Below, piece by piece: positions 1 through 34,952 of a stretch of 38,491 nucleotides of DNA. Numbering within the stretch: position 1 is the first letter of the stretch; each line of letters starts with the position of its first letter. The stretch is from Myxococcota bacterium (GTDB lineage Bacteria; Myxococcota_A; UBA9160; UBA4427). The position numbers and the translations under genes were made by a program. Where the stretch lies: the NCBI GenBank assembly GCA_028284295.1, contig JANQSB010000132.1, forward strand, positions 1 to 38,491. The letters are read 5' to 3'. Under the pieces are notes generated by a model, which had not been told where the DNA came from, did not search any database, and saw nothing but the letters and a program-made list of their open reading frames with translations.

Positions 1-24
1 ACGGACAGGCTCGGGGCCTCAGGC
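1..24 (+). repeat. 3' end of an attC site cut by the window edge
   Basis: CCTCAGGCAGC at 17-27 matches the R' ends of downstream sites (compare CCGTCAGGCAGC at 7825-7836). Confidence 0.3.
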
Positions 25-103
25 AGCAACGATCTCCCCGGGCGACACTTCAACCATCGCATCCCGCAGTGGGAGTGGGGAGCGATATACAAGGCAGCAT
101 GAA

Positions 104-487
104 ATGCGGCACTTTGCGATCCTGAGCGCAACGCTCCTGATTGGCTGTGCCGCTACCACGCGAGGCGCAGGCCCGGCCAGGCCGAACGATCCGAGTTCTT
201 GTTTCGTCACCCACCCAGTCACGGGCATCATCCCGGTTCCGGTCAAGCGAGTCGATCCGCTGTATCCTGTTGAAGCAAGGCAGAACGGGGTCACGGGGGA
301 AGTCACGATCGAAGCCTCGATCGGACCGGACGGCGAAGTGATGGGCGCTCGAGTTGTCGAATCGCACCCTCCCGGGGTTTTCGAGGCCACGTCCCTGTTC
401 GCCTATCGCCAGTGGCGCTATTGCGCGCCCAGCCCCGGAGTTCGATACCCGGAGACGTTCAAGACCAGGCTCCGGTTCGCCCTTTGA
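104..487 (+). CDS. TonB C-terminal-domain lipoprotein
   Basis: 127 aa. Has a signal peptide with an LLIGC lipobox. VKRVDPLYPVEARQNGVTGEVTIEASIGPDGEV...YRQWRY fits the TonB_C fold signature. Confidence 0.8.
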   Translation: MRHFAILSATLLIGCAATTRGAGPARPNDPSSCFVTHPVTGIIPVPVKRVDPLYPVEARQNGVTGEVTIEASIGPDGEVMGARVVESHPPGVFEATSLFAYRQWRYCAPSPGVRYPETFKTRLRFAL

Positions 488-497
488 CGCGCATGCC

Positions 498-657
498 GCC
501 TAACAAGGCGCTGCAGCAGCCGAGCGCCCGATCACCGAGCCTGCTCGAACCAGCGCCGCCTGCATGGCCTCACGCCCATCAGCCGGCTTCAGGTACCTTG
601 GGCGTCGTTGCTAGCCTCACCTTCAAACCAGGCGCTCGCAGCTGAGCGCCGTAGCCG
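498..657 (+). repeat. attC site (long class, ~160 bp, degenerate R')
   Basis: R'' GCCTAAC lies at 498-504, 10 nt after the TonB-like stop. The left arm GGCGCTGCAGCAGCCGAGCGCC is complementary to GGCGCTCGCAGCTGAGCGCC at 631-650. Core CGCCCATCAGCCGGCT...TACCTT is shared with the site at 5335. R' is eroded to GTAGCCG (651-657). Confidence 0.6.
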
Positions 658-660
658 GTG

Positions 661-969
661 TCACGCTCGCTTCTTGGCACCCTTCTTCTTCGCGGCGGCC
701 TTGGCCTTCTTGGGCTCCTTCGCGCCAGGCACCACCTCCAGGATCACACGGCGCAGCGTGTCTTCGAGCGGCTCTTCCTGGTTCTCCACGTAGGCCCGCA
801 GCACCTGGTTCATCATGGTCTGGTAGCTCCCGCCACCCTGTTCGTGGGCCTGCTTCTTGAACCACTCGAGCACGTCGTCATCGATCCGGATCGTGATCCG
901 CGTCTTTCCCGTCGCGGGCCCGATCACCGGACCCCGGCGCGCCTTGCTGAAGTCGAGGCTCTTCGTCAT
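661..969 (-). CDS. brnA: BrnA-type antitoxin (ribbon-helix-helix)
   Basis: 102 aa. KTRITIRIDDDVLEWFKKQAHEQGGGSYQTMMNQVLRAYV is the BrnA family signature. Its start overlaps the upstream toxin gene stop by 4 nt. Confidence 0.8.
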   Translation of the reverse strand: MTKSLDFSKARRGPVIGPATGKTRITIRIDDDVLEWFKKQAHEQGGGSYQTMMNQVLRAYVENQEEPLEDTLRRVILEVVPGAKEPKKAKAAAKKKGAKKRA

Positions 970-1232
970 CGCTTGCCTTCGTAGGCCCTTCGCTCAGGCC
1001 TCGTTGCTGGGCGCGCCGAAATCAGGCGGTGCTCCTCGTCGCGCCAGGTGTGCGTCACTACGAGGAGCCTCCCGAGGGCATCCGTTCCGAGCGTCACGAA
1101 GCGGTCCTCATCAGCATCCTCGTCTGGCATGGTCAGCGCGAGCTCGTCCTCCAGTGCCGTTGCCGCGTCCGCGAAGTCGATCCCGTGCTTCTCGAGGTTC
1201 CCGGCCGCCTTGTCTGGGTCCCACTGCACCAT
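966..1232 (-). CDS. brnT: BrnT-type toxin (DUF497 ribonuclease family)
   Basis: Starts at the internal ATG (MVQWDPDKAAGNLEKHGIDFADA...RLISARPATRPERRAYE), which is the DUF497 pattern. The longer TTG start at 1277 has no family support. Confidence 0.8.
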   Translation of the reverse strand: MVQWDPDKAAGNLEKHGIDFADAATALEDELALTMPDEDADEDRFVTLGTDALGRLLVVTHTWRDEEHRLISARPATRPERRAYEGKR

Positions 1233-1292
1233 GCACCCGGAGTGTATGCACACCTGTACACAGCTTGCCACGGGCAACGATTACGCGTTGCA

Positions 1293-1456
1293 GCCCAACA
1301 TCGGCGCTGCTGCAGCCGGTCGCCTGTCGGGGCGGGTCGGGGCTACGCCGCCCATCTGGGCTATCGCCCAGAGGGCGGCTCGGGGTAGGCTGTGACAGTG
1401 ATGGCGTGTTCAACGATTCGGCTGGCGCCTGCAGCAGAGCGCCGGGTCCGTTGGGC
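1293..1456 (+). repeat. attC site (long class, 164 bp)
   Basis: R'' GCCCAAC at 1293-1299 and R' GTTGGGC at 1450-1456. Arms ATCGGCGCTGCTGCAG and CTGCAGCAGAGCGCCG are complementary. Central GGGGTAGGCT box at 1382-1391. Confidence 0.8.
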
Positions 1457-1524
1457 GGACACAGCGAATTCGCGTGGCGCAGTGATACACGATGAGCTGA
1501 GTCCCGAAACAGACAGGAACTAGT

Positions 1525-2022
1525 GTGGAGCTCTCAGATCTCGGGGCGATCGGGGAGTTTGTGTCCTCGATCGCAGTCCTCGTCACACTGGTGTTTCTGA
1601 CCATCGAGACCAGAAACAACTCGAAACTTCTTGCGCGATCCAATGCAAGGCAGACGTCGAGTGACCACCGCCGAGCACTTGGCGAGATCCTCGACAAGGA
1701 AGTCTCCGAGCTCTTCCTTCGCGGCAATAGCCGCGGACTCGAATCGCTCACTCCAGAAGAGCGCTATCGATTCGATCTCGCCTACTGCATATGGCTTCAG
1801 TCAATAGAGCAAGCGTATGCGGATTATCGCGATGGTCTCTATCCGGCAGATCATCTCGCAGCCTACGAGAACACGATCCCGGCGTTTCTGAGAACTCCGG
1901 GCGGGTCGCAGTGGTGGGAAGAGCGCCGGATGTGGTTTGGTCACGCCTTCCGCGCCGAAGTCGAGCGACTACTGGAGGCTCCGCCAGAAGATGCTGTCGA
2001 ATCGGGGCCGAAGTCCGCATAA
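1525..2022 (+). CDS. Cassette family A protein (single N-terminal TM, unknown function), copy 1
   Basis: GTG start. Carries ELSDLGAIGEFVSSIAVLVTLVFL..., then a soluble part of ~120 aa ending TPGGSQWWEE...F. It is a paralogue of 9388, 16353 and 20480 and of the fragments at 19278 and 32833. Confidence 0.7.
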   Translation: MELSDLGAIGEFVSSIAVLVTLVFLTIETRNNSKLLARSNARQTSSDHRRALGEILDKEVSELFLRGNSRGLESLTPEERYRFDLAYCIWLQSIEQAYADYRDGLYPADHLAAYENTIPAFLRTPGGSQWWEERRMWFGHAFRAEVERLLEAPPEDAVESGPKSA

Positions 2023-2049
2023 CAAAATGCTGAAGACGCGCGAGGCGCC

Positions 2050-2181
2050 GCCCAACAAGTTGTTGGAGACGGACGTGGCCAAATCTGGGCGTAGGCGGGG
2101 TGCTAGCCTTCTGGCGTCAACCGTTGTTGACGTAGTGAGCCCGGCGGCGCGCCGCGCCGCTCGACAACCGATCCGTTGGGC
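2050..2181 (+). repeat. attC site (132-bp class)
   Basis: R'' GCCCAAC at 2050-2056 and R' GTTGGGC at 2175-2181; GCCGCCCAAC and GTTGGGCGGC are perfectly complementary. The L arms pair with two unpaired A bases in the left arm. GTGCTAGCCT box at 2100-2109, 54 nt from R''. Confidence 0.85.
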
Positions 2182-2225
2182 GGCGGCGCGCGTCCTCGGC
2201 CAGGCTGCGCTCGTCTCTGCTCCGA

Positions 2226-2897
2226 TCATGCCGCGCTCGAGAGGCGGCGCTCCGAGAGTTCTTCGACCAGGCGTACGACATCCGCTTGCGCGGCTGCTAC
2301 GGATCGGCGATGTCGCTCGTCGCCGAACTCCTGGTACTCGATGGCGACGCGGTAGGTCTCACCGACACCGAGATACCTGCTCAACGTGCGCAGGTGCGGG
2401 GTCAAATGGTCCATGCCGGCGCGCAGCCCTCCGGGTGCGAAGCCGAACTCGCCGCTCGACGTGAGTATCACGAGCGATTTGCCTTCCAGGATCGGCTCGA
2501 GCGGCCAGTCGCCACGGCCCAGGTCGAAGGTGAAGGTCTCGTCCACGCGGACGACCTGGTCGACCCACGCCTTCAGCGCGGCTGGCATTCCGTAGTTGTA
2601 CATGGGCGCGGCGATCAGCAGAAGGTCGGCCTGGCGCAGCTCGGCGATCAGCGTGTCGGAGAGCGCGAGGAGGCGCCGCTGCTCCGAACTGCGTTCGGTC
2701 TTCGGGGTGAAGGCCGCGCCGATCCAGGCCTCGGAAACCGCGGGCGGGGGCGCCGAGCCGACATCGCGATGCAGCCATGCATCGTGACGCCAACGAGCCC
2801 GCCACTCGCCGACGAAGCGATCGGCGAGCGCACGCGAGAGCGAGCGCTCCCGGCGAGCACTGGCATCGACCCGAAGAATGGTGAAGTCAGACGACAT
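2226..2897 (-). CDS. azoR: FMN-dependent NADH-azoreductase / flavodoxin-like quinone reductase
   Basis: Starts at MSSDFTILRVDAS with GGGAGG 7 nt upstream. LALSDTLIAELRQADLLLIAAPMYNYGMPAALKAWVDQVVR matches the AzoR family core. Confidence 0.8.
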   Translation of the reverse strand: MSSDFTILRVDASARRERSLSRALADRFVGEWRARWRHDAWLHRDVGSAPPPAVSEAWIGAAFTPKTERSSEQRRLLALSDTLIAELRQADLLLIAAPMYNYGMPAALKAWVDQVVRVDETFTFDLGRGDWPLEPILEGKSLVILTSSGEFGFAPGGLRAGMDHLTPHLRTLSRYLGVGETYRVAIEYQEFGDERHRRSVAAAQADVVRLVEELSERRLSSAA

Positions 2898-2982
2898 CTC
2901 GAGACCTCCCTGTGCCGCAGCCAAAATCAGCTTCTGGGCACAGAATCGGGCTTCCAAGGCCATTCAGGCAAACGAGAAAGCT

Positions 2983-2996
2983 TCATCGACAGATGA
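2983..2996. promoter_or_regulatory. Palindromic candidate LysR operator in the azoR-lysR divergent intergenic region
   Basis: TCATC-GACA-GATGA is a perfect 5-bp inverted repeat, nested in TTCA-N13-TGAA. It lies between divergent starts at 2897 and 3021. Confidence 0.4.
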
Positions 2997-3020
2997 GGTG
3001 AATTCATCTATAAGGCGAGC

Positions 3021-3941
3021 ATGTTCGCCCGCATACCCTCCCCCTCAGCCCTGCGAACCTTCGAGGCCGCCGCCCGGCTCGGTAGTTTCAAGGCCGCCGC
3101 CAAAGAACTCTCCGTGACGCCCACAGCGGTCTCCCACCAGATCCGCACCCTCGAGGAGCACCTGGAAATCCCGCTCTTCGTCCGTCGGACACGTGCCGTA
3201 GCGCTGACCGAGAGCGGCCAGCGGCTCTCCGAGGCAGTGCACCAGGCCTTCCAGCGGATCATGGTGGCGCTCGAAGAGGTCTCGGCAACGGAGACGGTCC
3301 TGAGCGTGAGCACGACGCCTGCGTTTGCTGCCCTCTGGCTCGTGCCCAGGCTGAGCCGTTTCGAAGAGCGTTATCCACAGCTCCGTGTCCAACTGGTCGC
3401 GAGTACGGCCCCAACGGATCTCCAACGGGATCGCGTCGTGGACGTCTCGGTTCGCTACGGCACCGGACCCTATCCGAGCCTTCGTGCTCATGCGCTCGCC
3501 GACGAAACCTTCGGCGCCTATGCCACGCCCGACTACATCCAGCGGCTCGAGCGGTGGGAGGACGCCGAACTGGTCGAGACCGCGTGGCAGCAGCCAGGCT
3601 TCGAGGATGTCTCGTGGGATGCGTGGCTTGCTGCGGCGGGGCTTCCCCGACCTACGAAGCTGAGATCACGACACTTCGATCAAGAGCACTATGTCGTTCA
3701 GGCCGGCTTGGCTTCCCAGGGGCTCGTGCTAGCGAGCTCTCTCCTGGTGGGTGACCTCGTAGCACGCGGATGGCTGGAACCCTATCGCCCCGAGACTCGA
3801 ATAGCGGGTCGCCGATACACGGCGCTTTCTCTGCCCAGCCGCGCCTCGTCGCGGAAGGTCTCGCAATTCCTCGAATGGCTGGAGGAGGAAGCGGCAGGCG
3901 ATGCACCAGTCGGCCGCCGCCCAACAAGGCGCCGCAGCTGA
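3021..3941 (+). CDS. LysR-family transcriptional regulator
   Basis: 306 aa. The N-terminal HTH LRTFEAAARLGSFKAAAKELSVTPTAVSHQIRTLEEHL is followed by a substrate-binding domain. It is divergent from azoR. The last codons and the stop lie inside the following attC. Confidence 0.85.
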   Translation: MFARIPSPSALRTFEAAARLGSFKAAAKELSVTPTAVSHQIRTLEEHLEIPLFVRRTRAVALTESGQRLSEAVHQAFQRIMVALEEVSATETVLSVSTTPAFAALWLVPRLSRFEERYPQLRVQLVASTAPTDLQRDRVVDVSVRYGTGPYPSLRAHALADETFGAYATPDYIQRLERWEDAELVETAWQQPGFEDVSWDAWLAAAGLPRPTKLRSRHFDQEHYVVQAGLASQGLVLASSLLVGDLVARGWLEPYRPETRIAGRRYTALSLPSRASSRKVSQFLEWLEEEAAGDAPVGRRPTRRRS

Positions 3942-4048
3942 CGTGACACAGCGCGTTCCAATCGGAGTCTGGTAGCATTCCGGCATCAACGTGCCTCGGC
4001 GACGGTCGGCGGCCTGTGCCACGCAACTGAGCGCCCAGTCCGTTAGGC
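3919..4048 (+). repeat. attC site (132-bp class)
   Basis: R'' GCCCAAC at 3919-3925 and R' GTTAGGC at 4042-4048. CTGGTAGCAT box at 3969-3978, 54 nt from R''. Confidence 0.85.
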
Positions 4049-4073
4049 TGAACTCACTTGTTCGCAGACACCC

Positions 4074-4154
4074 GCGCAACAAGGAGATCGGTGCGCAGAG
4101 AACCGGGGCCGTGAGTCGGCGCTTCTCCGCCTACCTTCGGGATCTCGAGCGCGG
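4074..4154 (+). repeat. attC remnant / empty cassette
   Basis: R''-like GCGCAAC at 4074-4080 followed by AAGG. The long-class core GCCTACCTTCGGG sits at 4129-4141. There is no right arm and it runs straight into the next attC. Confidence 0.35.
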
Positions 4155-4286
4155 GCCTAACAAGGCCCTCGAGACGGACGCGTCCACGCCTCAGCGCTAG
4201 CAGCGTGCTAGCCTTCTGGCCTCAACCGTTGTTGGAGTTGCGGGCTCGCCGCCGGGCCGCGCCGCTCGACAACGGATCCGTCAGGT
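4155..4286 (+). repeat. attC site (132-bp class)
   Basis: R'' GCCTAAC at 4155-4161 and R' GTCAGGT at 4280-4286. The left L arm CTCGAG-A-CGG-A-CGCG (4168-4182) pairs with CGCCGCTCGA on the right, with two unpaired A bases. GTGCTAGCCT box at 4205-4214. The core is near-identical to the site at 2050. Confidence 0.8.
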
Positions 4287-4308
4287 GGCGGTGCTTTCCT
4301 TGTCGTCG

Positions 4309-4821
4309 GTGCTCCCCGAACAAGAGCTGCTCTCGACCATCGCAGAGATGGGTATCGGGATCGTTGGCTTCGCGGTCGTCGCCGACATCCTTCGCTCCCG
4401 TTCTACCAGCGACGTGGTGCGGCTGTACAATCTTCGAGACGTCGCCGAGATCGGCCTGATGATCGCGGTCCTGAGTGTCTTCCCTTCCATGCTTCACGGC
4501 CTCGGGCTCTCGGCCGAGGCCAGCTGGCGCACGACGGGCGGCGGCGTTCTGGTCTGGACTGGGATCGGCGTCGCCAGCTCGTTCCGCAGGCGGGGGCCGG
4601 CATCTCTGGTCGGCGCTGCCAGAAGCAATCGGCTCGTCTCGGTCATCGTCTACATGCTGATCGGGCTCAACCTGGCACTTGCGTTCTCGAACCTGGTTGG
4701 CGCGGGTCCATCTTCTGGAGCTCGACACGTGGCGTGGGCGCTGTCGGCGCTCGGTCAAGCCGGAACCATGTTCATATCGTCGGTGTTCAGTCGTTCAGCC
4801 GAGGTGCCCGCTACCCAATAG
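4309..4821 (+). CDS. Cassette family B protein (multi-pass membrane, unknown function), copy 1
   Basis: The GTG at 4309 gives VLPEQELLSTIAEMGIGIVGFAVV, the same N-terminal length as the paralogues. An alternative GTG at 4285 lies inside attC R'. About 5 predicted TM segments. Confidence 0.65.
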   Translation: MLPEQELLSTIAEMGIGIVGFAVVADILRSRSTSDVVRLYNLRDVAEIGLMIAVLSVFPSMLHGLGLSAEASWRTTGGGVLVWTGIGVASSFRRRGPASLVGAARSNRLVSVIVYMLIGLNLALAFSNLVGAGPSSGARHVAWALSALGQAGTMFISSVFSRSAEVPATQ

Positions 4822-4929
4822 ACCGTTGCAGTGGCCTGCTGCTCAGGTGGCCTACCGAGGCGTGGTAGAATCGCGACGTCCATGTTGTTTCGTCTACGTG
4901 CAGGCCGCCGCAAGTCCGGTCTGTGAGGC
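4813..4929 (+). repeat. attC site (degenerate boxes)
   Basis: CCCAATAGACCGTTGCAGTGGCCTGC (4814-4839) is complementary to GCAGGCCGCCGCAAGTCCGGTCTGTGAGG (4900-4928). The boxes are ACCCAAT and GTGAGGC. GTGGTAGAAT box at 4862-4871. Confidence 0.55.
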
Positions 4930-4953
4930 GGCACGAAGAAATCGGAGGGTGCG

Positions 4954-5328
4954 ATGGACCTCGGCGAACATCTCCTCTGCCTCGACGTAGAGAACCTCGA
5001 AGCCTCGCTCGATTTCTACACGAAGCTCGGCTTCCGTCTCACCGAGGATCATCGACCCAAGCGATGGGCCGTGGTCGCCCATAGCAATCTCGTCGTGTGC
5101 CTGTTCGAAGGAATCGAAGAGAACCTCATGAACTTTCGAGGTGGCGACATCAGCGCGATCCAAGAGGAGGCGGTCGCGAACGGCCTCGACTTCACGAAGC
5201 CCGCTAAGCAGCACCCAGATGGCTCCTGGAACGCCACGATCCATGATCCCGATGGGAATGCGATCTTCTTCAACACCTTCCCCGATGAGCGAGAGCGCTA
5301 CGCCAGGACTGGCAGCATCGCCGACTAG
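4954..5328 (+). CDS. VOC (glyoxalase/bleomycin-resistance/dioxygenase fold) protein
   Basis: 124 aa. LCLDVENLEASLDFYTKLGFRL...IHDPDGNAIFF is the typical VOC motif pair. GGAGGG lies upstream of the ATG. Confidence 0.8.
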   Translation: MDLGEHLLCLDVENLEASLDFYTKLGFRLTEDHRPKRWAVVAHSNLVVCLFEGIEENLMNFRGGDISAIQEEAVANGLDFTKPAKQHPDGSWNATIHDPDGNAIFFNTFPDERERYARTGSIAD

Positions 5329-5334
5329 CGCGAT

Positions 5335-5496
5335 GCCTGACATCGGTGATGCAGCGTTCCAGCGCCGTCCGGTGGGCACTGGGGCAGTGCTGCCTGCCTG
5401 GGCTACGCCCATCAGCCGGCTCGGCTACCTTCGGCGCCTGGTGGCCCATTCACCTTCGACTCGGGCGCTCGCAGCTGGGTGCCGTATCCGTTGGGC
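5335..5496 (+). repeat. attC site (long class, 162 bp)
   Basis: R'' GCCTGAC at 5335-5341 and R' GTTGGGC at 5490-5496. The core ACGCCCATCAGCCGGCTCGGCTACCTT...GGGCGCTCGCAGCTG is shared with the site at 498. Confidence 0.75.
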
Positions 5497-5511
5497 TTCA
5501 GGCACAGCGGA

Positions 5512-6042
5512 GTGAGCCTTCCCCAGACGCTCGAGACCAGTCGGCTCAGGCTGCGCCCGTTCGCGGAATCGGATGGCCCAGCAGTCCTCGACTACTCGCA
5601 GGACGCCGATTGGGCGGAGTACCAGCAGACGACGCCAGCGTCCGAGAGGGAGGCAGAGCGTGTCGTCGCCGAGCTTCGACTTCGCGACTGGGAGAGTCAA
5701 CCTGCCTGGGCAATCACTCGCTCGGGCCAGGTGATCGGTCTCGTCAGCCTCGTCTTCCGTGCCGAGTACCGGATCGCTTCTCTCGGATACGGGATTCATC
5801 GGGATCACCGGGGTCTGGGGCTCACCGGAGAGGCGATTCGAGCGATCCTTGCCGAGGCCTTCGCCGCCCATCCGGAGCTTGCGAGGGTCACGGCGAACAC
5901 CGATGCGAGAAATCACAGCTCGAGTCGCTTGCTCGAGAAGCTCGGCTTCACCCTGGAAGGGACTCTTCGGTCGGGTGCGCTGACCGCCAAGGGCGAGCTT
6001 GTGGACGGCGCCATCTATGGGCTCCTCCGGTCTGAATGGTAG
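5512..6042 (+). CDS. GNAT N-acetyltransferase (RimJ/RimL-like)
   Basis: The GTG at 5512 is the first start after attC R'. LETSRLRLRPFAESD...GYGIHRDHRGLGLTGEAIRAIL...ARNHSSSRLLEKLGF is the Acetyltransf_3-type pattern. Confidence 0.8.
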   Translation: MSLPQTLETSRLRLRPFAESDGPAVLDYSQDADWAEYQQTTPASEREAERVVAELRLRDWESQPAWAITRSGQVIGLVSLVFRAEYRIASLGYGIHRDHRGLGLTGEAIRAILAEAFAAHPELARVTANTDARNHSSSRLLEKLGFTLEGTLRSGALTAKGELVDGAIYGLLRSEW

Positions 6043-6228
6043 GCCGCCCCGGCAGAGGACAGAGACTGCGATCGCGGAGCTACGCCGCGATGTGGGCCTG
6101 TCCCGAAGCGAGTTCATCGAAGCGGTCGAGCCGAATCGAGAGGCCTTCGTATCCAGCTGTTCCGGAGTCGCGGATGGCGCTCCTGACGGAGTGGCTCCCC
6201 ATCGACGGTCCGAGCTAGGCCACCCCCC

Positions 6229-6391
6229 GCCCGACGATCGAGCAGCCTTGCTCACGGTCGATGCCGGGTGGGGCGTGGCAGCCTCTGCCTCCTGGCCCGG
6301 TCCGACCGGCGCCTGTGGCATCATCGGGTCCCGAGCCGAGCGCTCATCGCGCTTCCAGGGTGGGAGTAGCCGAGCGCCCGATCCACCAGGC
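6229..6391 (+). repeat. attC-like site (degenerate)
   Basis: Starts with GCCCGAC (6229-6235), carries a central GTGGCATCAT box (6315-6324), and ends GATCCACCAGGCGGCG (compare GATCCGTCAGGCAGCG at 7823). Confidence 0.45.
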
Positions 6392-6401
6392 GGCGTGGCG
6401 C

Positions 6402-6773
6402 GTGGAGATCCGCACCAAGCGAATCTACGAAGAGCCCAGCTCGTCCGACGGTGTTCGGGTTCTGATCGACAGGCTCTGGCCTCGCGGAGTCTCCAAGGAC
6501 GCCGCCGCCATCGACTTCTGGGCCAAAGCCGTGGCCCCCTCGAACGAGTTGAGAGTCTGGTACGGGCACGATCCCACCAAGTGGCCCGAGTTTCGCCGGC
6601 GCTACTTCGCGGAGCTCGACGCGAACCCCGAGGGCGTGGCCGAGGTCGAGTCCCGGATCGACGGCGTCACTGCGACTCTGGTCTTCAGCTCGAAGGAGGA
6701 GCGAATGAACAACGCCTCCGCGTTTCGCGACTATCTCGAGCGGCGCAGATCGATCCGCCGGGCGGCGCGATGA
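6402..6773 (+). CDS. DUF488-family protein
   Basis: GTG start just after the attC. VRVLIDRLWPRGVSKDAAAIDFWAKAVAPSNELRVWYGHDPTKWPEFRRRY is the DUF488 signature. Confidence 0.75.
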   Translation: MEIRTKRIYEEPSSSDGVRVLIDRLWPRGVSKDAAAIDFWAKAVAPSNELRVWYGHDPTKWPEFRRRYFAELDANPEGVAEVESRIDGVTATLVFSSKEERMNNASAFRDYLERRRSIRRAAR

Positions 6774-27208: not shown

Positions 27209-27247
27209 GTCTCGCAGGTCTCGCAGGTAGAGGAGGGAGAGGCCGCG

Positions 27248-28461: not shown

Positions 28462-28487
28462 CCGGTAGAATGAGGGGATCGACCCGG

Positions 28488-28796
28488 GTGCCGACGGGGG
28501 ACCTGGCCACGGCTGACTTCAAGACGACTCCGATGCTGCGTCGCGAGGCAGGGCTCCAGCGCCTTGCGGGCCTCCTGGACGAGCTGCGCGCCCTCGAAGG
28601 CCTGCGCGAGAAGCGACCGGGGACCTTCTCGCATCGCTCTCGCGCCTTCCTCCACTTCCACTACCACCCGGATGGACGGATCGTCGCCGATGCGAAGCTG
28701 TCGGATGCCGGCTTCTCGCGCTTCGACGTCTCCGAGCCCTCTGGCCAGCAGGAGCTGCTCGCCGGGATCCGGCGCTTCCTGTCCTCGGAACCGTGA
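28488..28796 (+). CDS. Small hypothetical protein
   Basis: The open frame runs from ATG 28470, which overlaps the TAGAAT box; in-frame GTG at 28488 and ATG at 28533 are alternatives. Carries ...RAFLHFHYHPDGRIVADAKLSDAGFSRFDV. I could not place it in a family. Confidence 0.45.
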   Translation: MPTGDLATADFKTTPMLRREAGLQRLAGLLDELRALEGLREKRPGTFSHRSRAFLHFHYHPDGRIVADAKLSDAGFSRFDVSEPSGQQELLAGIRRFLSSEP

Positions 28797-28803
28797 GAGC
28801 CCC

Positions 28804-29580
28804 ATGCAGCGATCACCGCGAGCAGAGAAGTATCCCGACCTCGACGAGATCTACTCCCAGTGCAGCGGGCCCGGCGCGCTGCGGACTGCGGAGTTCGTGG
28901 CCGACAAGATCGGTCTGCGTGAAGGCATGCGCGTGCTGGACGTCGGGATCTACCGGGGCATCCAGACCTGCTTCCTCGCCAAGGAGTACGGGTGCCTCAT
29001 GGTGGCCGTCGATCCCTGGCTGGACGACTTTGACCCCGCTGGCGATGGCAGGCCCTTCGTCGATCACCTCCGTCGCAATGCCGAACGCTGGGGCGTTGCC
29101 GATCGCGTGCTGGGCTTGCGACTGGGCCTGCCGAAGATCCGCTTCGCCGATATGTCGTTCGACGCGGCGTACTCCAGTACGGCGTTCGAGATGATCCGGG
29201 GGCTTCATGGCGACGATGAGTACCTCGCTTCGCTGAGGGAGGTGTTCCGGGTCCTCCGGCCCGGGGGCGTGTTCGGTCTCGCCGAGCCGATGCATCGGGG
29301 AGGCCCTCCCCCGGTCGACCTGGAGCCCCTGGTCTCCGAGGGTCCCCTGCCGTTCAAGAAGTGCCTGGCGACTCCGGAGCAGACGGCCGAGCAGCTTCGC
29401 GAGGCCGGGTTCGAGGTCCTGGAGGCGGGACATGCTCCCGACGCGAAGGAGTGGTGGGAGGAGTTCGCGACCCACGACGACGAGTGCCGACGCAATCCCG
29501 AGGGCAATCCGCGCATGCTGGCCGTGGACGCGGGTCGCTGGATCAGCTTCGGCTACGTGGTCGGGAGACGGCCGGCGTGA
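28804..29580 (+). CDS. SAM-dependent methyltransferase
   Basis: Carries VLDVGIYRGIQTCFLAKEYGCLMVAVD...LRPGGVFGLAEP. Confidence 0.7.
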   Translation: MQRSPRAEKYPDLDEIYSQCSGPGALRTAEFVADKIGLREGMRVLDVGIYRGIQTCFLAKEYGCLMVAVDPWLDDFDPAGDGRPFVDHLRRNAERWGVADRVLGLRLGLPKIRFADMSFDAAYSSTAFEMIRGLHGDDEYLASLREVFRVLRPGGVFGLAEPMHRGGPPPVDLEPLVSEGPLPFKKCLATPEQTAEQLREAGFEVLEAGHAPDAKEWWEEFATHDDECRRNPEGNPRMLAVDAGRWISFGYVVGRRPA

Positions 29581-29885
29581 TCGGCAGGATTCCCGAGTCC
29601 ATGGTCGCCTATCGGCGAACTCCCGAGTTCACGGAGCATTCGGTTCCGGACGCGCTGCGTCGGAATCACTCGACGAAGGCCGGCGTCTGGGGTTTGATCC
29701 ACGTCCTGGAGGGCTCGCTCCTCTACCGGGTGGCGGGCCCCCCCGCCGAAGAGGTCCTTCTCTCGAAGGAGCAGCCGGGTGTGATCGAGCCCGAGGCGTT
29801 GCATGCCGTCGAGCCTCGAGGGGCGGTTCGCTTCTACGTCGAGTTCTGGCGCGAGCCAACGGAGGACGGGCCCCATGATGGCTAG
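29577..29885 (+). CDS. DUF1971 (TehB N-terminal-like) protein
   Basis: Its GTG overlaps the upstream stop (GTGA); an alternative ATG lies at 29601. Carries YRRTPEFTEHSVPDALRRNHSTKAGVWGLIHVLEGSLLY. Confidence 0.65.
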   Translation: MIGRIPESMVAYRRTPEFTEHSVPDALRRNHSTKAGVWGLIHVLEGSLLYRVAGPPAEEVLLSKEQPGVIEPEALHAVEPRGAVRFYVEFWREPTEDGPHDG

Positions 29886-29895
29886 AGGGCCTTCC

Positions 29896-30441
29896 ATGGA
29901 GCTGCGGCCCGCTTCCGACTCCGATCTTCCCGCCATCGGCCGGCTCCACGTGGATGCCTTCGGTCCCCAGGAAGGACCGGAGGTCGCCGACCTGGTGGCG
30001 GATCTGCTGCGCGACGAGACCGCCCTGCCCCGTGTGTCGATCGTGGCCGAAGCCGACGGTGTGCTGGCAGGCCACGTCCTGTTCACGGCGGCCGGTCTCG
30101 ATTCGGATGCGGCGAGTCCCGTCGCGAGCATCCTGGCGCCCCTGGGTGTCGCTTCTGGGTATCAGCGTCAGGGAGTGGGAGGGCTGCTGGTCGATCGGGG
30201 GCTCGCGCTGCTGATCGAGCAGGCCGTCGATCTCGTCTTCGTCCTGGGACATCCGAGCTACTACCCGCGCTTCGGGTTCCGGCCGGCTCGGGAGCTCGGC
30301 TTCGACGCGCCCTACCCCATTCTTCCGGAGAACGACGCTGCATGGATGGTGAAGGCGCTGCAGCCCGGGGCGCTGGATCGCTTCGCGGGTACCGTCGCTT
30401 GTGCGTCGGCCCTGGATCGTCCGGAGCACTGGACGGAGTGA
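29896..30441 (+). CDS. GNAT N-acetyltransferase (YhbS-like)
   Basis: Carries MELRPASDSDLPAIGRL...LGVASGYQRQGVGGLLV...YYPRFGF. Alternative starts at 29875 and 29878. Confidence 0.75.
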   Translation: MELRPASDSDLPAIGRLHVDAFGPQEGPEVADLVADLLRDETALPRVSIVAEADGVLAGHVLFTAAGLDSDAASPVASILAPLGVASGYQRQGVGGLLVDRGLALLIEQAVDLVFVLGHPSYYPRFGFRPARELGFDAPYPILPENDAAWMVKALQPGALDRFAGTVACASALDRPEHWTE

Positions 30442-30537
30442 GGCGGCGCCCAGCGATCCCGGCTGGGGTAGCCTGGGGATCGTGATGGCGTCCTGATTCC
30501 GCACCGCGAGGACCCCGGCCAGGAGGACGAGCCCCTC

Positions 30538-31038
30538 ATGGAAGGTGCCGACATCCTTCAGACGATCGCCGAGGTCGCGATCGCATTGACGGGCTTCACG
30601 GGGATCGTCGTCGCGCTCGGCAATCGCGGAGGCGTGCCGGTCTCGGGATTCGCCCTGGTGCGCTTCCGGATCCTGCTGGCGGCCAGCCTCGCCGCGCTCG
30701 CCTTCTCGCTGATTCCCTTCTTCTGGTACTACCTCGACATCCCCGCGAGCACGTCCTGGGCGGTCTCGAGCGGTCTGGCTCTGGTCTTCATGGTCCCGAT
30801 CGTCGTCTACGACGTTCGCGCCTTCCGCGAGCATGCCGATCAGATCCCGGTCTTCGAGCGACGAGCCGCGCCCGCCATCGCGATCCTGGGCGCCTCGCTG
30901 TGGCTCGCCCAGGTGGCGAACGTGCTGCACTTCCGCTCGTTCGGACCCTACCTGGCGGTTCCCCTGTGGTTCCTCGGCTTCTCGGCCCTCTCCTTCGCGC
31001 GGCTTCTCTTCACGCGTCAGGGTGGAGAGCATCCGTGA
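30538..31038 (+). CDS. Cassette family B protein, copy 5
   Basis: Carries MEGADILQTIAEVAIALTGFTGIVVAL. A GGAGGA RBS lies upstream. Confidence 0.7.
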   Translation: MEGADILQTIAEVAIALTGFTGIVVALGNRGGVPVSGFALVRFRILLAASLAALAFSLIPFFWYYLDIPASTSWAVSSGLALVFMVPIVVYDVRAFREHADQIPVFERRAAPAIAILGASLWLAQVANVLHFRSFGPYLAVPLWFLGFSALSFARLLFTRQGGEHP

Positions 31039-31045
31039 GCCGGGG

Positions 31046-31069
31046 GTCTCTCGGGCCGGCTCGGGAGAC
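31046..31069. terminator. GC-rich hairpin between convergent genes
   Basis: GTCTCTCGG...CTCGGGAGAC forms a stem of ~8-10 bp (with G-U pairs) between the stops at 31038 (+) and 31079 (-). There is no U-tract. Confidence 0.35.
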
Positions 31070-31078
31070 GCTGAAGGG

Positions 31079-31450
31079 TCAGGACTGCGACGCCGCGTCG
31101 ATGGAGATATCGAAGTACTCGTCGTCGCTCGCGTCTTCCCGGACCTCGCTCGACGTGCTGTGAACGGGCTCGGTGGCTCCCGGTGGCCAGATCACCAGGT
31201 AGATGTCCGGGCTCGACTCGGCGACGTCCTTGAAGTCGGCATCGGTGAAGCGGATCTCGAAGCGGCCGTCGGAGTCGGTGTCGCACTCGCCGAGGAAGTC
31301 GTCGGACCAGACGTCCTTGTCGAAGGCCTGAACCCGATGGCCACCCAGCGGCTTCCCGGTGCGCTCGTCGCGTACCACACCTCGTACCCGGAAGCGCTGC
31401 CAGCGGATCCAGGGTACGCGAATCGTCTTCCCCACGTCTCGCTCCTCCAT
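31079..31450 (-). CDS. Transthyretin-like / carboxypeptidase-regulatory-like beta-sandwich protein
   Basis: VRGVVRDERTGKPLGGHRVQAFDKD...TDSDGRFEIRF...DIYLVI is the typical pattern. The gene is inverted in the array. Confidence 0.55.
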   Translation of the reverse strand: MEERDVGKTIRVPWIRWQRFRVRGVVRDERTGKPLGGHRVQAFDKDVWSDDFLGECDTDSDGRFEIRFTDADFKDVAESSPDIYLVIWPPGATEPVHSTSSEVREDASDDEYFDISIDAASQS

Positions 31451-31558
31451 CTGCAGCGGGAGTCGAGTCTACACGAGGAACTGGCCCGGACGGGCTGCGG
31501 TACGATTCCGACGAGCTTCGCGCGGCGCTGGAGAGGCTCATCGGACAGGCGGTCTTCG

Positions 31559-31936
31559 ATGGCGCAGATCGGCTACGTGATGGTCGGCACCAACGATCTG
31601 GCCCGGGCGGTCGGGTTCTACGACGCGCTCCTCGGCGGGCTCGGCGCCACGCGCTTCAGCGAGACGGACCGGGGCGTGTCCTGGTCCTTCGGTGTCGGCA
31701 CCACCAGCCTGTGCGTCACCGAGCCCTTCGACGGTGCTCCGGCGAGCGTCGGCAACGGGACGATGGTCGCGCTCGGCCTGCGCGACCGGCAGCAGGTGGA
31801 TGCCGCGCACGCGCGAGCCCTCGAGCTGGGGGCCGCCAACGAGGGCGACCCGGCCCCGCGTGGCTCTGCGGGCTTCTACGCCGGCTACTTCCGCGACCTC
31901 GACGGCAACAAGCTGAACCTGTTCTGCATCGGGTAG
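31559..31936 (+). CDS. VOC (glyoxalase-fold) protein
   Basis: Carries MAQIGYVMVGTNDLARAVGFYDALLG...GYFRDLDGNKLNLF. Confidence 0.8.
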   Translation: MAQIGYVMVGTNDLARAVGFYDALLGGLGATRFSETDRGVSWSFGVGTTSLCVTEPFDGAPASVGNGTMVALGLRDRQQVDAAHARALELGAANEGDPAPRGSAGFYAGYFRDLDGNKLNLFCIG

Positions 31937-31982
31937 CCTCGAGGGCACGCGAGGACACCTCGCGCATCACGCGCACAGCGCG

Positions 31983-32012
31983 TTGACCCCGGCCGGCCGC
32001 GGGAGGCATAAT
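31983..32012 (+). promoter_or_regulatory. Sigma70-like promoter upstream of the Coq4-like gene
   Basis: TTGACC (31983-31988), 18 nt, then CATAAT (32007-32012), 40 nt before ATG 32052. The architecture matches the promoters at 17007 and 20339. Confidence 0.5.
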
Positions 32013-32051
32013 CCGCCTCGGGCCGAGATCGACGGCGACGGGAACCGAACG

Positions 32052-32813
32052 ATGGCAGACCATCCGAGGCGGATCCGCTGGGCCGACGCACGCGCGGCAC
32101 TTCGCCGGCTGCAGGCCGACCCGAACGCGACGGACGCGGTCTTCGAAATCGTCGAGGCGCTGGCGGGAAGGCACCCGCTCCACCTGCTCGAGCGTGTGCG
32201 CCGCGACCCCGAAGGCGCACGCCTGCTCCGCGAGCGCCCGCTCTTCGATCCTCGCCACGCCGACATGGAAGCGCTCGAAGCGCTTCCGGAGGGCAGCTTC
32301 GGTTGCGAGTTCGCCACCTGGATGCGCGACAACGACTTCGAGCCGGGCCTCGCCGAGCGCGACCGTGAGGGCGATCCCGACCTCGTCTATCTGGCGACCC
32401 GCCTCACCCAGGTCCACGACTTCTGGCACGTGCTCTCCGGATACAACCGCGATCCCCTGGGCGAGCTCGGGATCCTCGCGTTCAGCGTCGGGCAGAACGG
32501 GACGCGCGGGTTCGCGTTCATCCTCGCGAACGTGGTGTGGCAGAGCATCCGAAGCAACTGGCGCGAGGAGCGTCGTCCCTGGAGTCCGCTGATCGGCTAC
32601 CTGTGGCGCGGGTTCCGGGCCGGACGCAAGGCCCGCTTCCTGCCTCCGCTCGTGCTCGAGGATTGGTTCGCGTTGCCCCTCGACCGCGTTCGGGAGACGC
32701 TCGGGATCGAGCCGCTTCGGCGGTCGCTGAACGCCGAGGCCCTGCCGCCGATCCACTCGCCCTTGCTGCGGTCCGCGGGCGGCGCCCGGAAGCGGGAGTA
32801 CGTCCCCTGCTAG
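32052..32813 (+). CDS. Coq4-family protein
   Basis: HDFWHVLSGYNRDPLGE is the HDxxH-(x)11-E motif characteristic of Coq4. 253 aa. Confidence 0.7.
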   Translation: MADHPRRIRWADARAALRRLQADPNATDAVFEIVEALAGRHPLHLLERVRRDPEGARLLRERPLFDPRHADMEALEALPEGSFGCEFATWMRDNDFEPGLAERDREGDPDLVYLATRLTQVHDFWHVLSGYNRDPLGELGILAFSVGQNGTRGFAFILANVVWQSIRSNWREERRPWSPLIGYLWRGFRAGRKARFLPPLVLEDWFALPLDRVRETLGIEPLRRSLNAEALPPIHSPLLRSAGGARKREYVPC

Positions 32814-32832
32814 CTGCCGCGAGACGGCTCGC

Positions 32833-32973
32833 GTGACGATCCAGGACCTGGGGAGCATCGGCGAGCTCGTCGCGGCCGCGGCGGCCATCGCGACCCTGGC
32901 GTATCTCGCGGTGCAGATCCGACACCTGTCGAACGCCACCAGGACCGACGCCGCGCGGCCTGCGGCGCGATAG
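32833..32973 (+). pseudogene. Cassette family A gene fragment (46 aa, N-terminal TM only)
   Basis: GTG start. VTIQDLGSIGELVAAAAAIATLAYLAVQIR is followed by unrelated residues and a TAG, 7 nt before the family B start. Confidence 0.55.
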
Positions 32974-32980
32974 TCGGAAC

Positions 32981-33469
32981 GTGTCGGCCGAATCCTTCCT
33001 CTCGTCCGTCGTCGAGGTGGCCATCGGCATCGGCGGCTTCGCGGGCATCATCGCGGCGATTCGTCAGGGTCGGCTCGCCGATTGGCCTGCCGACCAACGG
33101 ATCCTGCTCCAGATGCTCCTCGTGGCCTCGGCGGCGGCGATCAGCTTCGCGCTGCTGCCCTCGATCCTGGCCGAGGCGCAGCTGGACGAGCCGACGATAT
33201 GGCGGATCGGAAGCGCTCTGCTGCTGGCGTGGCAGGTGGGGATCGCCGTGCATCGGACCCGGCAGTTCCGGAGCTTCGGGGTGACACCCTGGTTCCCGCG
33301 GCTGCTCGGGGTGTGGGTGGCGGGGATCATCGCCTTCCAGGTGGCGAACCTCGGGCTGGCGATGTCGTGGCCGTACCTGGTCGGCGTGTTCGGCCTGCTG
33401 GTGAACGGGTTCTCCTTCTTCCTGCTCCTGCTCTTCGGGCGCGGGGACCCGCCGCCCGACGCCCCCTGA
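32981..33469 (+). CDS. Cassette family B protein, copy 6
   Basis: GTG start. Carries SAESFLSSVVEVAIGIGGFAGIIAAI. The stop lies inside CCCTGAC. Confidence 0.7.
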   Translation: MSAESFLSSVVEVAIGIGGFAGIIAAIRQGRLADWPADQRILLQMLLVASAAAISFALLPSILAEAQLDEPTIWRIGSALLLAWQVGIAVHRTRQFRSFGVTPWFPRLLGVWVAGIIAFQVANLGLAMSWPYLVGVFGLLVNGFSFFLLLLFGRGDPPPDAP

Positions 33470-33544
33470 CACCCGAAGAGGCGCGGGCCTGCAGCCTCTC
33501 CCGGCGCGCGATAGCCTCATTGCACACCGAAGGAGGTGCTCCAC

Positions 33545-33835
33545 ATGGCCGTGTACCTGATCGCCGAGATGACCTGGAAGAACACCGACTGGCTGCCCGC
33601 CTACCTCGGCGTCGTTCCGGCGCTGGTCGAGAAGCACGGCGGCCGCTACGTGGTCCAGACCGGAGAGATCGAGCGCCTGGAGGGAACGCGCGACAAGACG
33701 GACGGCATCGTCGTCCTCGAGTTCCCGGACCGCGACGCGGCGATGGCGTTCCTGGACGACCCCGCCTACCAGGAGCAGAAGGCCGCCCGCCTGGAGAACA
33801 CCGTCTCCGAGACGATCCTCGTTCCCGTGAAGTGA
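33545..33835 (+). CDS. DUF1330-family protein
   Basis: ATG with GAAGGAGG 6 nt upstream. Carries MAVYLIAEMTWKNTDW...KHGGRYVVQTGEIERLEG...VVLEFPDRDAAMAFLDDPAYQ. A GATAGCCT box lies 28 nt upstream. Confidence 0.75.
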   Translation: MAVYLIAEMTWKNTDWLPAYLGVVPALVEKHGGRYVVQTGEIERLEGTRDKTDGIVVLEFPDRDAAMAFLDDPAYQEQKAARLENTVSETILVPVK

Positions 33836-33884
33836 GGCGGCCGGTCCCGAAGGCCGCGAGAAGGACGAGGGACCGGACTCTCGC

Positions 33885-34874
33885 GTGGCCTCGGTCGCAA
33901 CGCTTCCGCGCTCCAGGCAGCTGATCGTCCTCCGCGAGGTCGCTCACGAGGCGCTCGGCCACTACCCGATCGCGGTGCAGCGCCTCCGGGTGCTTCGCTT
34001 CGTTCGAAACGCCATCTTCCGGGTCGATCTGCGGAACGGCCAGTGGCGAATCCTCCGGGTCTACCGGCCGGAGTACCAGGATCCCAAGCGGGCGATCTTC
34101 GAGGCCAGGCTCCTGAGCCATCTCGCCGCGAGCTCGCGTGTTCGCGCTCCCCGGCCCGTGCCGACACGCGACGGGTCGTTGCTGCTGGAGTTCGCGAGTG
34201 TCGCGCTCGACGGGCGTGCCTTCGCGGTGCTGCTCCAGCCGGTGGCGGGACGGCGCCCGCCGATCGCCAGCCCGAGCGCCCGCACGGTCCACCTCGCCGG
34301 TGCCGTGATGGCGGAGATCCACGACGAGGGTCGGGCCGTGAAGGCGAAGCGGAGATTCCCGCATGCCGACTGGGGACCCTTCGTGGAGCGGGGTCTGTCG
34401 CTTCCTCCGGGTCTGCACGCGCACCTGGGAGAGCCGACGATCCGGTCCTTGCGCCGGCATGTCGACGGCGCGCGCGAGTTCCTGGCGCGTACGCGGCGCG
34501 ACGAGATCGGTGTGTTGCACGGCGACTTCCACCAGGGCAACTACCTGCTCGACCGGGGCCGCGTCTGCCCGATCGACTTCGGGGACTGTGCGACCGGGCC
34601 CTTCGTTTGCGACCTCGCGACCGCTGTCACGGCGCTGGCGGCAAGGGCAGGCTACGCGCAGAAACGGAAGGCCCTGCTGCGGGGCTATCGCGAGCGACGC
34701 GAGCTGCCCGCCTCCGCGGAGGACGCACTCGACTCCCTCGTCGCCGCGCGAGTGGGGATCTCGTTGAGCCACGTCTTCGGCCGCGCGGATCACCCCTATC
34801 TGGAGCGCCGAGCGCTGCGCAACTACCTGGCGCTCACGAGAGCTCGGCTACGAGAGGTCGGGATCGGCGCCTGA
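33885..34874 (+). CDS. Aminoglycoside-phosphotransferase-fold (APH/homoserine-kinase-II-like) kinase
   Basis: VLHGDFHQGNYLL is the HxDxxxxN catalytic loop and PIDFGD is the DFG-like motif. 329 aa, GTG start. Confidence 0.75.
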   Translation: MASVATLPRSRQLIVLREVAHEALGHYPIAVQRLRVLRFVRNAIFRVDLRNGQWRILRVYRPEYQDPKRAIFEARLLSHLAASSRVRAPRPVPTRDGSLLLEFASVALDGRAFAVLLQPVAGRRPPIASPSARTVHLAGAVMAEIHDEGRAVKAKRRFPHADWGPFVERGLSLPPGLHAHLGEPTIRSLRRHVDGAREFLARTRRDEIGVLHGDFHQGNYLLDRGRVCPIDFGDCATGPFVCDLATAVTALAARAGYAQKRKALLRGYRERRELPASAEDALDSLVAARVGISLSHVFGRADHPYLERRALRNYLALTRARLREVGIGA

Positions 34875-34952
34875 TCGGTCTCGTTGCGACGATGTTCGCG
34901 GTCGCTGGCGCAACGGGCTGGCCGGACCGGGTGCGACTGGAGCGGGCTGCCG

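Follow-up and report, generated by a model that had tools for sequence, protein, structure and literature searches.

The window, by which we mean the whole analysed stretch of 38,491 nucleotides (contig JANQSB010000132.1 of assembly GCA_028284295.1, from an uncultured Myxococcota bacterium), contains integron recombination sites (attC) and the small genes of a cassette array. Four zones follow one another along it. The first 9.4 kb contain eight credible attC sites, all on the + strand and within positions 498-9368. The second zone (9391-20983) is a decayed array with about fifteen small genes, mostly on the + strand, and attC remnants that reach to about 20.4 kb. The third zone (20984-37163) is free of attC sites and contains about twenty small, co-oriented genes of cassette type on the + strand. 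The right end of the window (37189-38491) is chromosomal flank and carries, on the opposite strand, an enoyl-CoA hydratase gene and a gene of the CMD family (Pfam assignments); judged from this flank, a chromosomal location of the array is plausible. The GC content increases from about 0.62 at the left end to about 0.73 at the right. The genome is of high GC, and we interpret the window as the promoter-distal, fossilising end of one of its integron cassette arrays, belonging either to a chromosomal integron or to a cluster of attC sites lacking an integrase (CALIN), and put the probability of this reading at roughly 0.88. An earlier note on this DNA had placed the window inside an array of about 20 attC sites extending to position 34950. 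Both the number and the placement have to be revised, to eight sites in the distal, decaying end of an array that gives way to flank at 37.2-38.5 kb.

The attC sites of the window belong to two length families, one of about 130 nt (sites 2050, 3919, 4155 and 7702, named by their first position) and one of about 162-171 nt (sites 498, 1293, 5335 and 9198). Related arrays are present in metagenome-assembled genomes (MAGs) of Myxococcota, namely JB082 (contig L002), JB083 (L020, which includes the integrase IntI, and L091) and IP29b_bin.147 (L052, also with IntI), and of the deltaproteobacterium OFTM107 (L097, L115 and L125). The first site of the window (498-665, +) is of the long family and follows the cassette gene 104-487 (+), which encodes a TonB C-terminal domain protein (PF03544, E 1e-13). 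It has the R'' core GCCTAAC and a degenerate R' core (G|GTGTCA); its left arm scores 34.4 with a position weight matrix (PWM), and its arms pair with two extra bases on the left. This site had been missed by the earlier note, which listed the other seven; the cores of those seven are where they had been placed, and duplex calculations and alignments confirm that their arms pair. Site 1293-1456 (+, GCCCAAC...GTTGGGC) is of the long family, forms a duplex of -42.8 kcal/mol and contains the left-arm family motif CCCAACATCGGCG. Site 2050-2181 (+, GCCCAAC...GTTGGGC) is of the short family, and its bottom-strand fold has an R box and a spacer of 4 nt, with bulges in one of the arms; a site of the same subfamily adjoins IntI in L052 (4717-4848). 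Site 3919-4048 (+, short family, GCCCAAC...GTTAGGC) is 87% identical to L002 6378-6518. Site 4155-4286 (+, GCCTAAC...GTCAGGT) closes a gene-less cassette (4049-4286). The long-family site 5335-5496 (+, GCCTGAC...GTTGGGC) is partly degraded, with a duplex of -29.9 kcal/mol, and retains the exact left-arm motif. Site 7702-7833 (+, GCCTAAC...GTCAGGC) is of the short family and has TGGTACAAT in its loop at 7753. The last site, 9198-9368 (+, ACCTGAC...GTCAGGC; duplex -41.8 kcal/mol), contains a second R'' core (GCCTAAC) nested at 9231.

The inverted cores R'' (RYYYAAC) and R' (GTTRRRY) are both present in seven of the eight sites, site 498 with its degenerate R' being the exception, and several sites have G in place of A at core position 5 (GCCTGAC / GTCAGGC). 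In arm alignments, the left arm of seven of the eight sites carries one to four extra unpaired bases and the right arm none or one. The earlier note had confined such bases to the left arm, and the example that it quoted at 4168-4182 is right. The unpaired spacer of 5-6 nt that it described is borne out on the right side, before R', and the spacer after R'' on the left measures 2 nt. The same asymmetry characterises sites in other genomes: in 224 of 331, the left arm has two extra bases and the right arm is free of them. Since the extra bases sit on the left arm, the + strand of the window is the top strand of attC. DNA folds of the bottom strands of sites 2050, 3919 and 7702, a check that the earlier note had proposed, contain the R box, an unpaired 4-nt stretch and a long stem. 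The R'' cores also supply stop codons, as the note had observed: TAA at 16261 and 19141 and TGA at 9201 and 16824, which end the open reading frames (ORFs) 15664-16263, 18688-19143, 8619-9203 and 16353-16826, respectively. Well-formed cores and arms are kept in five sites. The mean column identity of the eight sites is 54%, and their MAFFT alignment mixed up the two length families, so no model was built from it.

The identity of the sites was established with a covariance model that contains no sequence from the window. Rfam gave no match in the window at the gathering threshold, a result that is uninformative either way. A scan with a regular expression and a duplex cut-off of -28 kcal/mol returned real sites mixed with chance GCTCGAC...GTCGAGC palindromes inside genes and was superseded by the covariance model. 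A homolog of the cassette protein encoded at 1525-2022 (82% identical) led to L002, which carries 17 near-uniform attC sites of the window's sequence family, and the left-arm pattern GCCYAACAAGGNSYTKCAGCNGAC, scanned over one genome per species, retrieved at least 120 DNA stretches. The matches listed come from Myxococcota, Gamma-, Beta- and Alphaproteobacteria, Acidobacteriota, Binatia, Gemmatimonadota, Planctomycetota, Spirochaetota, Chloroflexota, Nitrospirota and others. All ten ORFs for tyrosine recombinases among them match the NCBIfam family TIGR02249 "integron integrase" with 248-478 bits; nine pass its cut-off of 265 bits, and the tenth (248 bits) is a truncated ORF of 165 residues. 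An eleventh, partial integrase match was added in these loci by tblastn. In every integrase-linked locus among the matches listed, IntI is upstream of the array when the sites are read in the direction R''-AAGG..., which upholds the left-to-right orientation given by the earlier note. IntI itself is co-oriented with the cassettes in L020, L042, L052 and L059 and divergent from them in L009, L065, L092 and L118; the co-oriented arrangement is that of the Myxococcota-type loci and the divergent one that of the others, and it may be compared with known integrons with an inverted integrase.

The covariance model, R1, was built from 29 attC sites of seven integrase-linked loci in other genomes. In its alignment, 89.9% of the cells of the R box and L arm are paired, compared with 21-40% in slid controls, and 11 pairs show compensatory changes. 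R1 was run over the whole window, on both strands and with filters off. It recovered six sites with E values from 1.6e-13 to 1.2e-4, on the + strand only: 3919-4048 (60.2 bits, E 1.6e-13), 2050-2181 (42.3 bits, E 5.8e-9), 7702-7833 (37.0 bits, E 1.3e-7), 498-659 (32.1 bits, E 2.2e-6), 1293-1456 (31.8 bits, E 2.7e-6) and 9231-9368 (25.3 bits, E 1.2e-4). The attC covariance check suggested by the earlier note thus has a positive outcome with this home-made model. The remaining two sites, also on the + strand, gave 14.0 bits (4155-4286, E 0.089) and 11.3 bits (5396-5496, E 0.43), the latter covering only part of site 5335. On the - strand of the window, there was no significant match, the best having an E value of 0.48. 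Because the best R1 score in the 21 kb of L125, which are array-free, is 17 bits, about 20 bits is a fair noise ceiling. For the last site, R1 favours a start at 9231 and the arm asymmetry one at 9198. Outside the window, R1 found 351 attC sites in 100 of the loci listed. One of these loci, L041 (DASZTF010000157.1), has an array of attC sites of about 153 nt with strong R1 scores in a MAG labelled Candidatus Paceibacterota, a member of the candidate phyla radiation, so that either a binning error or an unexpected host is involved.

GC-rich imperfect palindromes between genes, with folding energies that are unexceptional next to those of shuffled sequences, could also be dispersed intergenic repeats unrelated to integrons, such as repetitive extragenic palindromes (REP) or bacterial interspersed mosaic elements (BIME). 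The palindromes of the window, however, share one polarity and form a tandem array at ORF ends; they have the R and L box architecture with extra bases on one arm only; the same family lies beside TIGR02249 integrases in other loci, and a model made from those integrase-linked sites recovers the sites of the window; and the sites bound units that move between genomes. The earlier note's assignment to integron attC therefore stands, and REP-type repeats are excluded.

A cassette is taken to be the unit between the G|TT crossover points in the R' cores of two successive attC sites, and it is through recombination of the folded attC bottom strand that IntI would excise and insert these units. Three cassettes of the window recur in other arrays (L002; L091; L115 and L065), with homology that breaks at R' cores and with different neighbours. 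The complete cassette 1447-2181 (+), consisting of the membrane-protein gene 1525-2022 and its attC, matches L002 9923-10657 with 77% identity over 739 nt; the homology begins 3 nt before one R' core and extends through the final base of the next, and the cassettes on either side are different. The cassette 2169-4048 (+) contains two genes, one (2226-2963, -) encoding a flavodoxin-like FMN reductase and the other (3021-3941, +) a LysR regulator (both from Pfam), followed by attC, and is 86% identical over 1889 nt to L091 5319-7204 of the Myxococcota MAG JB083. Its two genes are divergent, and the cassette appears to carry a regulator along with the likely target of that regulator. The cassette of the BrnA/BrnT toxin-antitoxin pair (genes 661-1277, -; PF14384 and PF04365) is inverted with respect to the array; the stretch 657-1344 recurs with 95% identity in L115 and with 70% identity within L065, an array linked to IntI.

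The gene-less cassette (4049-4286, +) measures 238 bp and consists almost entirely of its attC site (4155-4286). The genes that follow it (4285-9203, Pfam) encode a membrane protein, a glyoxalase, a GNAT protein, a DUF488 protein, a GNAT-like ORF, Pyridox_ox_2, MarC and DUF1990; they are on the + strand except for Pyridox_ox_2 (7224-7697, -). The earlier note had the sites immediately 3' of + strand ORFs. The + strand sites are indeed at ORF ends, but the genes of BrnTA, the flavodoxin-like reductase and Pyridox_ox_2 are on the - strand. Some units of the intact zone are blocks of several genes, which is explained by decayed sites at 4818-4925 and about 8470-8600. The cargo of the whole window, which includes a toxin-antitoxin pair, at least six glyoxalase/VOC proteins, at least three GNATs, four methyltransferases, APH, GFA and DUF proteins, is typical of integron cassettes. 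A family of small membrane proteins without a Pfam match, with the N-terminus DLGxIGE...YLxxQIR, is borne on cassettes in the window and in L002, L111 and L126. Its copies in the window are at 1525-2022, 9391-9873, 16353-16826 and 20501-20959, with fragments at 19278-19385 and 32833-32970. An exact look-up of the BrnA protein (661-969) retrieved a single Logan contig. This contig, of 1253 bp and from sequencing run SRR20820731 (L001), is 100% identical to positions 70-1322 of the window, and the organism is thus present in that public data set.

New cassettes would enter at attI beside intI, which, from the orientation of the sites, should be located left of coordinate 1. The earlier note had found no integrase in view; tblastn with six IntI proteins likewise gave no match in the window below E 0.5. 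The first 50 bases of the window had no match in genome_contigs or metagenome_contigs, and a walk upstream of the relative array L126 was likewise empty. The window therefore does not contain a complete integron with intI adjoining the array. Nor does it have the tens of homogeneous, species-specific sites that define a sedentary chromosomal integron, as there are eight sites with 54% column identity in two length families. As in CALINs, at least two of the attC sites share a strand and are separated by under 4 kb, with only 497 bp visible upstream of the first site. The array may be a CALIN in the strict sense, an orphan attC cluster whose integrase has been lost or separated, and not part of an active chromosomal integron. 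CALINs are common (PMC4889954), there is no intI in the window, decayed sites occur already within the first 9.4 kb, and the attC sites are heterogeneous and several of them degraded, with scores of 11-60 bits against 57-71 bits for most sites of L002. However, only 497 bp of the contig precede the first attC, and assemblies are routinely interrupted by arrays, so that the window may instead be the tail of a split integron; the relative JB083 offers a parallel, with IntI and the beginning of an array on one contig (L020) and a continuing array on another (L091); and five sites of the window have well-formed cores and arms. We give this possibility a little less than even odds. Under either assignment, the window is the distal end of a cassette array, and an integrase would exist, or would have existed, upstream of it.

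No intact attC site was found beyond position 9368 of the window. Degraded sites begin within the intact zone, where 4818-4925 (+), between ORF 4285-4821 and the glyoxalase gene 4954-5328, has no proper R'' or R' and retains the left-arm-like sequence ACCGTTGCAGTGGCC and the loop motif TGGTAGAAT at 4863. A second decayed site probably lies at about 8470-8600 (+), between the genes of MarC and DUF1990, where GCCGCAGCTGACC resembles the left-arm consensus and the cores are lost. Farther right, a 30-bp remnant (11470-11499, +) consists of R'' GCCTGAC and a piece of the left arm fused to R' GTTGGGC; R1 gives it 9.8 bits (E 1), and its right-arm PWM score is 12.9. It is followed, upstream of the Glyoxalase_7 gene, by a purine-rich tract of about 50 nt, (GAGAG/GGAG)n, at 11500-11550. 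The right half of a site persists at about 13052-13110 (+); its local alignment to the corresponding half of site 7702 spans about 60 nt (score 45), and it has an exact 16-mer in common with an attC of L002; TGGTAGGCT is at 13036. The remnant 16258-16335 (+) has an intact left arm of the long family (GCCTAACATCGGCGCC...) and an R'-like GTCGGGT, and its right arm is lost. Its motif CCYRACATCGGYG occurs in four exact copies in the window (1294, 5336, 9199 and 16259), all on the + strand, where 0.8 would be expected even with one mismatch. A weaker, putative remnant at 16821-16865 (+), which aligns with sites 498 and 1293, has R'' GCCTGAC and fused pieces of both arms (...GAGCGCCGGTCC). Another possible decayed site extends from 19138 to about 19270 (+), where the preceding ORF ends in a stop codon that overlaps R'' GCCTAAC; the stretch just downstream, 19275-19481, shares 82% identity with the first part of an L111 cassette located behind an attC. 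The last remnant is the right arm GAGCGCCGATCCGTTCCGC at 20406-20429 (+), which has a right-arm PWM score of 11.7, on its own at noise level, and a 15-mer in common with an attC of L052. The decayed zone (9391-20983, mostly +) contains, by Pfam, genes for ADH, Glyoxalase_7, methyltransferases, SRPBCC and an alpha/beta hydrolase, as well as three more members or fragments of the membrane-protein family.

In the zone without attC sites (20984-37163, +), Pfam identified genes for two HXXEE proteins, GFA, DUF2071, three glyoxalases, two GNATs, PEMT, a methyltransferase, Coq4, DUF1330, APH, a glutathione S-transferase (GST) and DUF4336. R1, the PWM and BLAST against the attC library found nothing attC-like at 20.5-35 kb. 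Measured on every gene between 104 and 38485, the GC content at third codon positions (GC3) climbs steadily with position (Spearman's rho = 0.71, with p = 6e-9), and its means are 0.765 at 0-9.4 kb, 0.817 at 9.4-20.5 kb, 0.873 at 20.5-35 kb and 0.896 in the flank. For the opposite-strand genes at 37189-38491, it is 0.91. Such a gradient is expected if cassettes enter on the left and older ones drift to the composition of the host. With the entry point at attI beside intI, left of coordinate 1, cassettes farther right are older. Three trends run together towards the right: the loss of attC cores and arms, the fusion of cassettes into multi-gene blocks, and the approach of GC3 to the level of the flank. 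The stretch 20.5-37.2 kb most likely consists of fixed former cassettes, in an end of the array that would no longer be recombined. We hold this view of fossil cassettes with moderate confidence.

An end of this kind is also present in related arrays. In L002, an 8-kb run of small genes that lack attC comes after the 17 attC sites. Along the metagenome contig L126, R1 scores drop from 62 to 11 bits towards an ortholog of the window's GST, with attC on both sides of it and weak sites beyond; in OFTM107, the distance from an array to the GST ortholog downstream is about 25 kb, and the 10 kb examined upstream of GST contain no attC. The GST proteins of the three relatives are 78-82% identical, and the gene content upstream of GST is wholly different among them. 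Comparison of the distal zone with L002, L125 and L126 revealed no synteny except for GST and DUF4336. The genes for GST and, after it, DUF4336, which together occupy 35221-37163 of the window, lie inside or at the end of attC arrays in relatives (L126 6062-6679 and 10001-11086; L125 10001-11128). Possibly the array keeps to one chromosomal locus throughout this lineage; alternatively, GST could itself be a cassette that became fixed long ago. The named homologs of GST and of the cassettes point to Myxococcota as the probable host.

Several results weigh against the interpretation of the window as the end of a cassette array. Two of the eight sites, 4155 and 5335, miss R1 at E<0.01. Both are structurally sound despite their weak scores; site 4155 has three extra bases, all of them on the left arm, and is 82% identical to L002 attC 10542-10652, which itself scores 39.9 bits. 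Fold energies of the sites relative to shuffled sequences have z scores of -0.5 to -2, except for 9231-9368 with z = -4.4. Because high-GC shuffles fold almost as well, it is the architecture that is informative and not the folding energy. No integrase, attI or cassette promoter (Pc) is in view for this genome, the contig of which begins 497 bp before the first attC. Taken one by one, the remnants to the right of 9.4 kb score at or close to the level of noise: when 9.4-38.5 kb was searched by BLAST against the attC library, there were four matches with E<0.5, compared with 0-3 in shuffles, and the right-arm PWM matches at 13087 and 20406 fall short of the null distribution's 95th percentile. 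As a set, they are credible because they are located at ORF ends, on one strand, and have family-specific sequence.

The last point on this side concerns the distal zone. At 20.5-35 kb, the only attC-derived sequence is a TGnTAnnnT motif, described below, and one gene fragment, so this part could be ordinary chromosome. Only 1-9.4 kb, or at most 1-20.4 kb, would then be integron-derived. This would agree with the lack of any detectable attC or arm remnant at 20.5-37 kb, with the closeness of the zone's GC3 (0.87) to that of the flank (0.90), and with L125, where a similar run of small co-oriented genes surrounds the GST ortholog and there is no attC within 10 kb. It agrees less well with the gene fragment itself (32833-32970), in which 25 of 41 residues are shared with the protein encoded at 16353, a member of the cassette-borne family. 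Furthermore, the DUF4336 gene after GST (36276-37163, at 36.3-37.2 kb) has 71% nucleotide identity to an attC-flanked cassette gene of L126, the GST ortholog of L126 has attC sites on both sides, the gene content upstream of GST differs completely among the three relatives, and the strand-specific TGnTAnnnT motif runs on to 25.9 kb. We consider ordinary chromosome an unlikely description of the distal zone and prefer to see in it genes that were once cassettes.

The array is of a known kind. Finding one in an uncultured high-GC bacterium is to be expected, as surveys of the IntegronFinder type report many. Like the superintegron of Vibrio cholerae with its attC repeats (VCR; PMC11014356, PMC5371416), it consists of tandem units of ORF and attC on one strand, with RYYYAAC...GTTRRRY cores, extra bases on one arm, a toxin-antitoxin cassette inverted with respect to the array, and small genes, many of which are of unknown function or have GNAT or glyoxalase folds. 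It differs in having eight intact, heterogeneous sites of two length families instead of a homogeneous, species-specific repeat, in the decay of the sites along the array, in the absence of a visible integrase and in its high-GC host. With CALINs (Cury et al. 2016, PMC4889954), it shares at least two attC sites on one strand separated by under 4 kb, the absence of intI from the available sequence and cassettes unrelated to those of clinical integrons; unlike in CALINs, the absence of intI holds only for the visible sequence, which ends just upstream of the first site. The closest likeness is to the related MAG arrays, with which the window shares attC families (site 2050 resembles L052 4717, and site 3919 resembles L002 6385), cassettes with 77-95% nucleotide identity, the loss of attC towards the distal end and, in the case of OFTM107 and L126, the position of the array upstream of the GST ortholog. 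Its sites are more degraded than those of L002, and the rest of its cassette content is different.

The loops of the attC sites contain a second feature, the motif TGnTAnnnT (usually TGGTAnnnT), which resembles an extended -10 promoter element and reads TG(G/C)TAnnnT in the sites of the window. TGGTAnnnT occurs in ten copies in the window, all on the + strand, where 1.7 are expected; TGnTAnnnT occurs in 14, again all on the + strand, where 7.1 are expected on both strands together. The copies at 609, 2101, 3970, 4206, 4863, 7753 and 9312 are followed by those at 10889, 13036, 16338, 18268, 21053, 21883 and 25939. Their locations are attC centres, decayed sites (at 4863 and 13036) and the upstream regions of + strand ORFs, out to 25.9 kb. 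The start codons GTG at 13051 and ATG at 16353 each have a copy 6 nt in front of them, which is the spacing expected for leaderless transcripts.

The motif was also counted in 159 unique attC sites, 118-140 nt long, that represent 46 loci in many phyla; it is on the top strand of 102 sites and on the bottom strand of one, compared with 4.8 in shuffled loops. The attC class of about 130 nt is present in Myxococcota, Gemmatimonadota, Binatia, Gammaproteobacteria, Spirochaetes and further phyla, and among the sites with the motif are those of L020, L052, L065 and L126. The position of the motif is fixed at about 51 nt from the 5' end of attC, in a loop that is otherwise variable. In an alignment not anchored on the motif, TG, TA and the final T form a conserved island and the three middle positions are free; in the consensus fold, the loop that bears the motif is unpaired, with no conserved pairing. 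No -35 partner of the loop motif was found, and a scan for two sigma-70 hexamers gave one site versus 1.9 expected. The motif was rejected as a general promoter of the host, as L125 with its 24 genes holds one copy.

We speculate from these sequence patterns that the attC class of about 130 nt carries a built-in promoter directed at the downstream cassette. We regard this as tentative and somewhat more likely to be wrong than right; alternatively, the motif may be a recognition site on the folded bottom strand. Cassettes are treated as generally promoterless and the loop as highly variable (PMC11014356, PMC8876359, PMC8352920), and in a limited literature search these three papers do not mention an extended -10 element in the attC loop. 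Known cassette-borne promoters, such as those of toxin-antitoxin cassettes, cmlA, qac and gene-less Vibrio cassettes (PMC8876359, PMC11014356), would likewise give Pc-independent transcription within an array. They are located in 5' untranslated regions or gene-less cassettes, whereas the candidate -10 element is inside the attC loop, at a fixed position across the class. The motif may be new and is a lead rather than a result.

The decay gradient and the loop motif are of more value than the array itself, the interest of which is otherwise modest. One contig displays the passage from intact attC sites through remnants to attC-free genes, with GC3 rising in step, and the same layout in at least three related arrays makes it a concrete case for the fixation of cassettes as chromosomal genes. 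If the promoter in the loop is real, each attC of this class would drive transcription of the cassette after it without the need for Pc, and the mRNA, having no left arm, could not form the attC hairpin. Expression of the cassettes would then outlast the decay of their sites, which would ease their fixation as ordinary genes. A functional promoter of this kind would qualify the textbook view of cassettes as promoterless and dependent on Pc, and would help to explain the expression of long environmental arrays.

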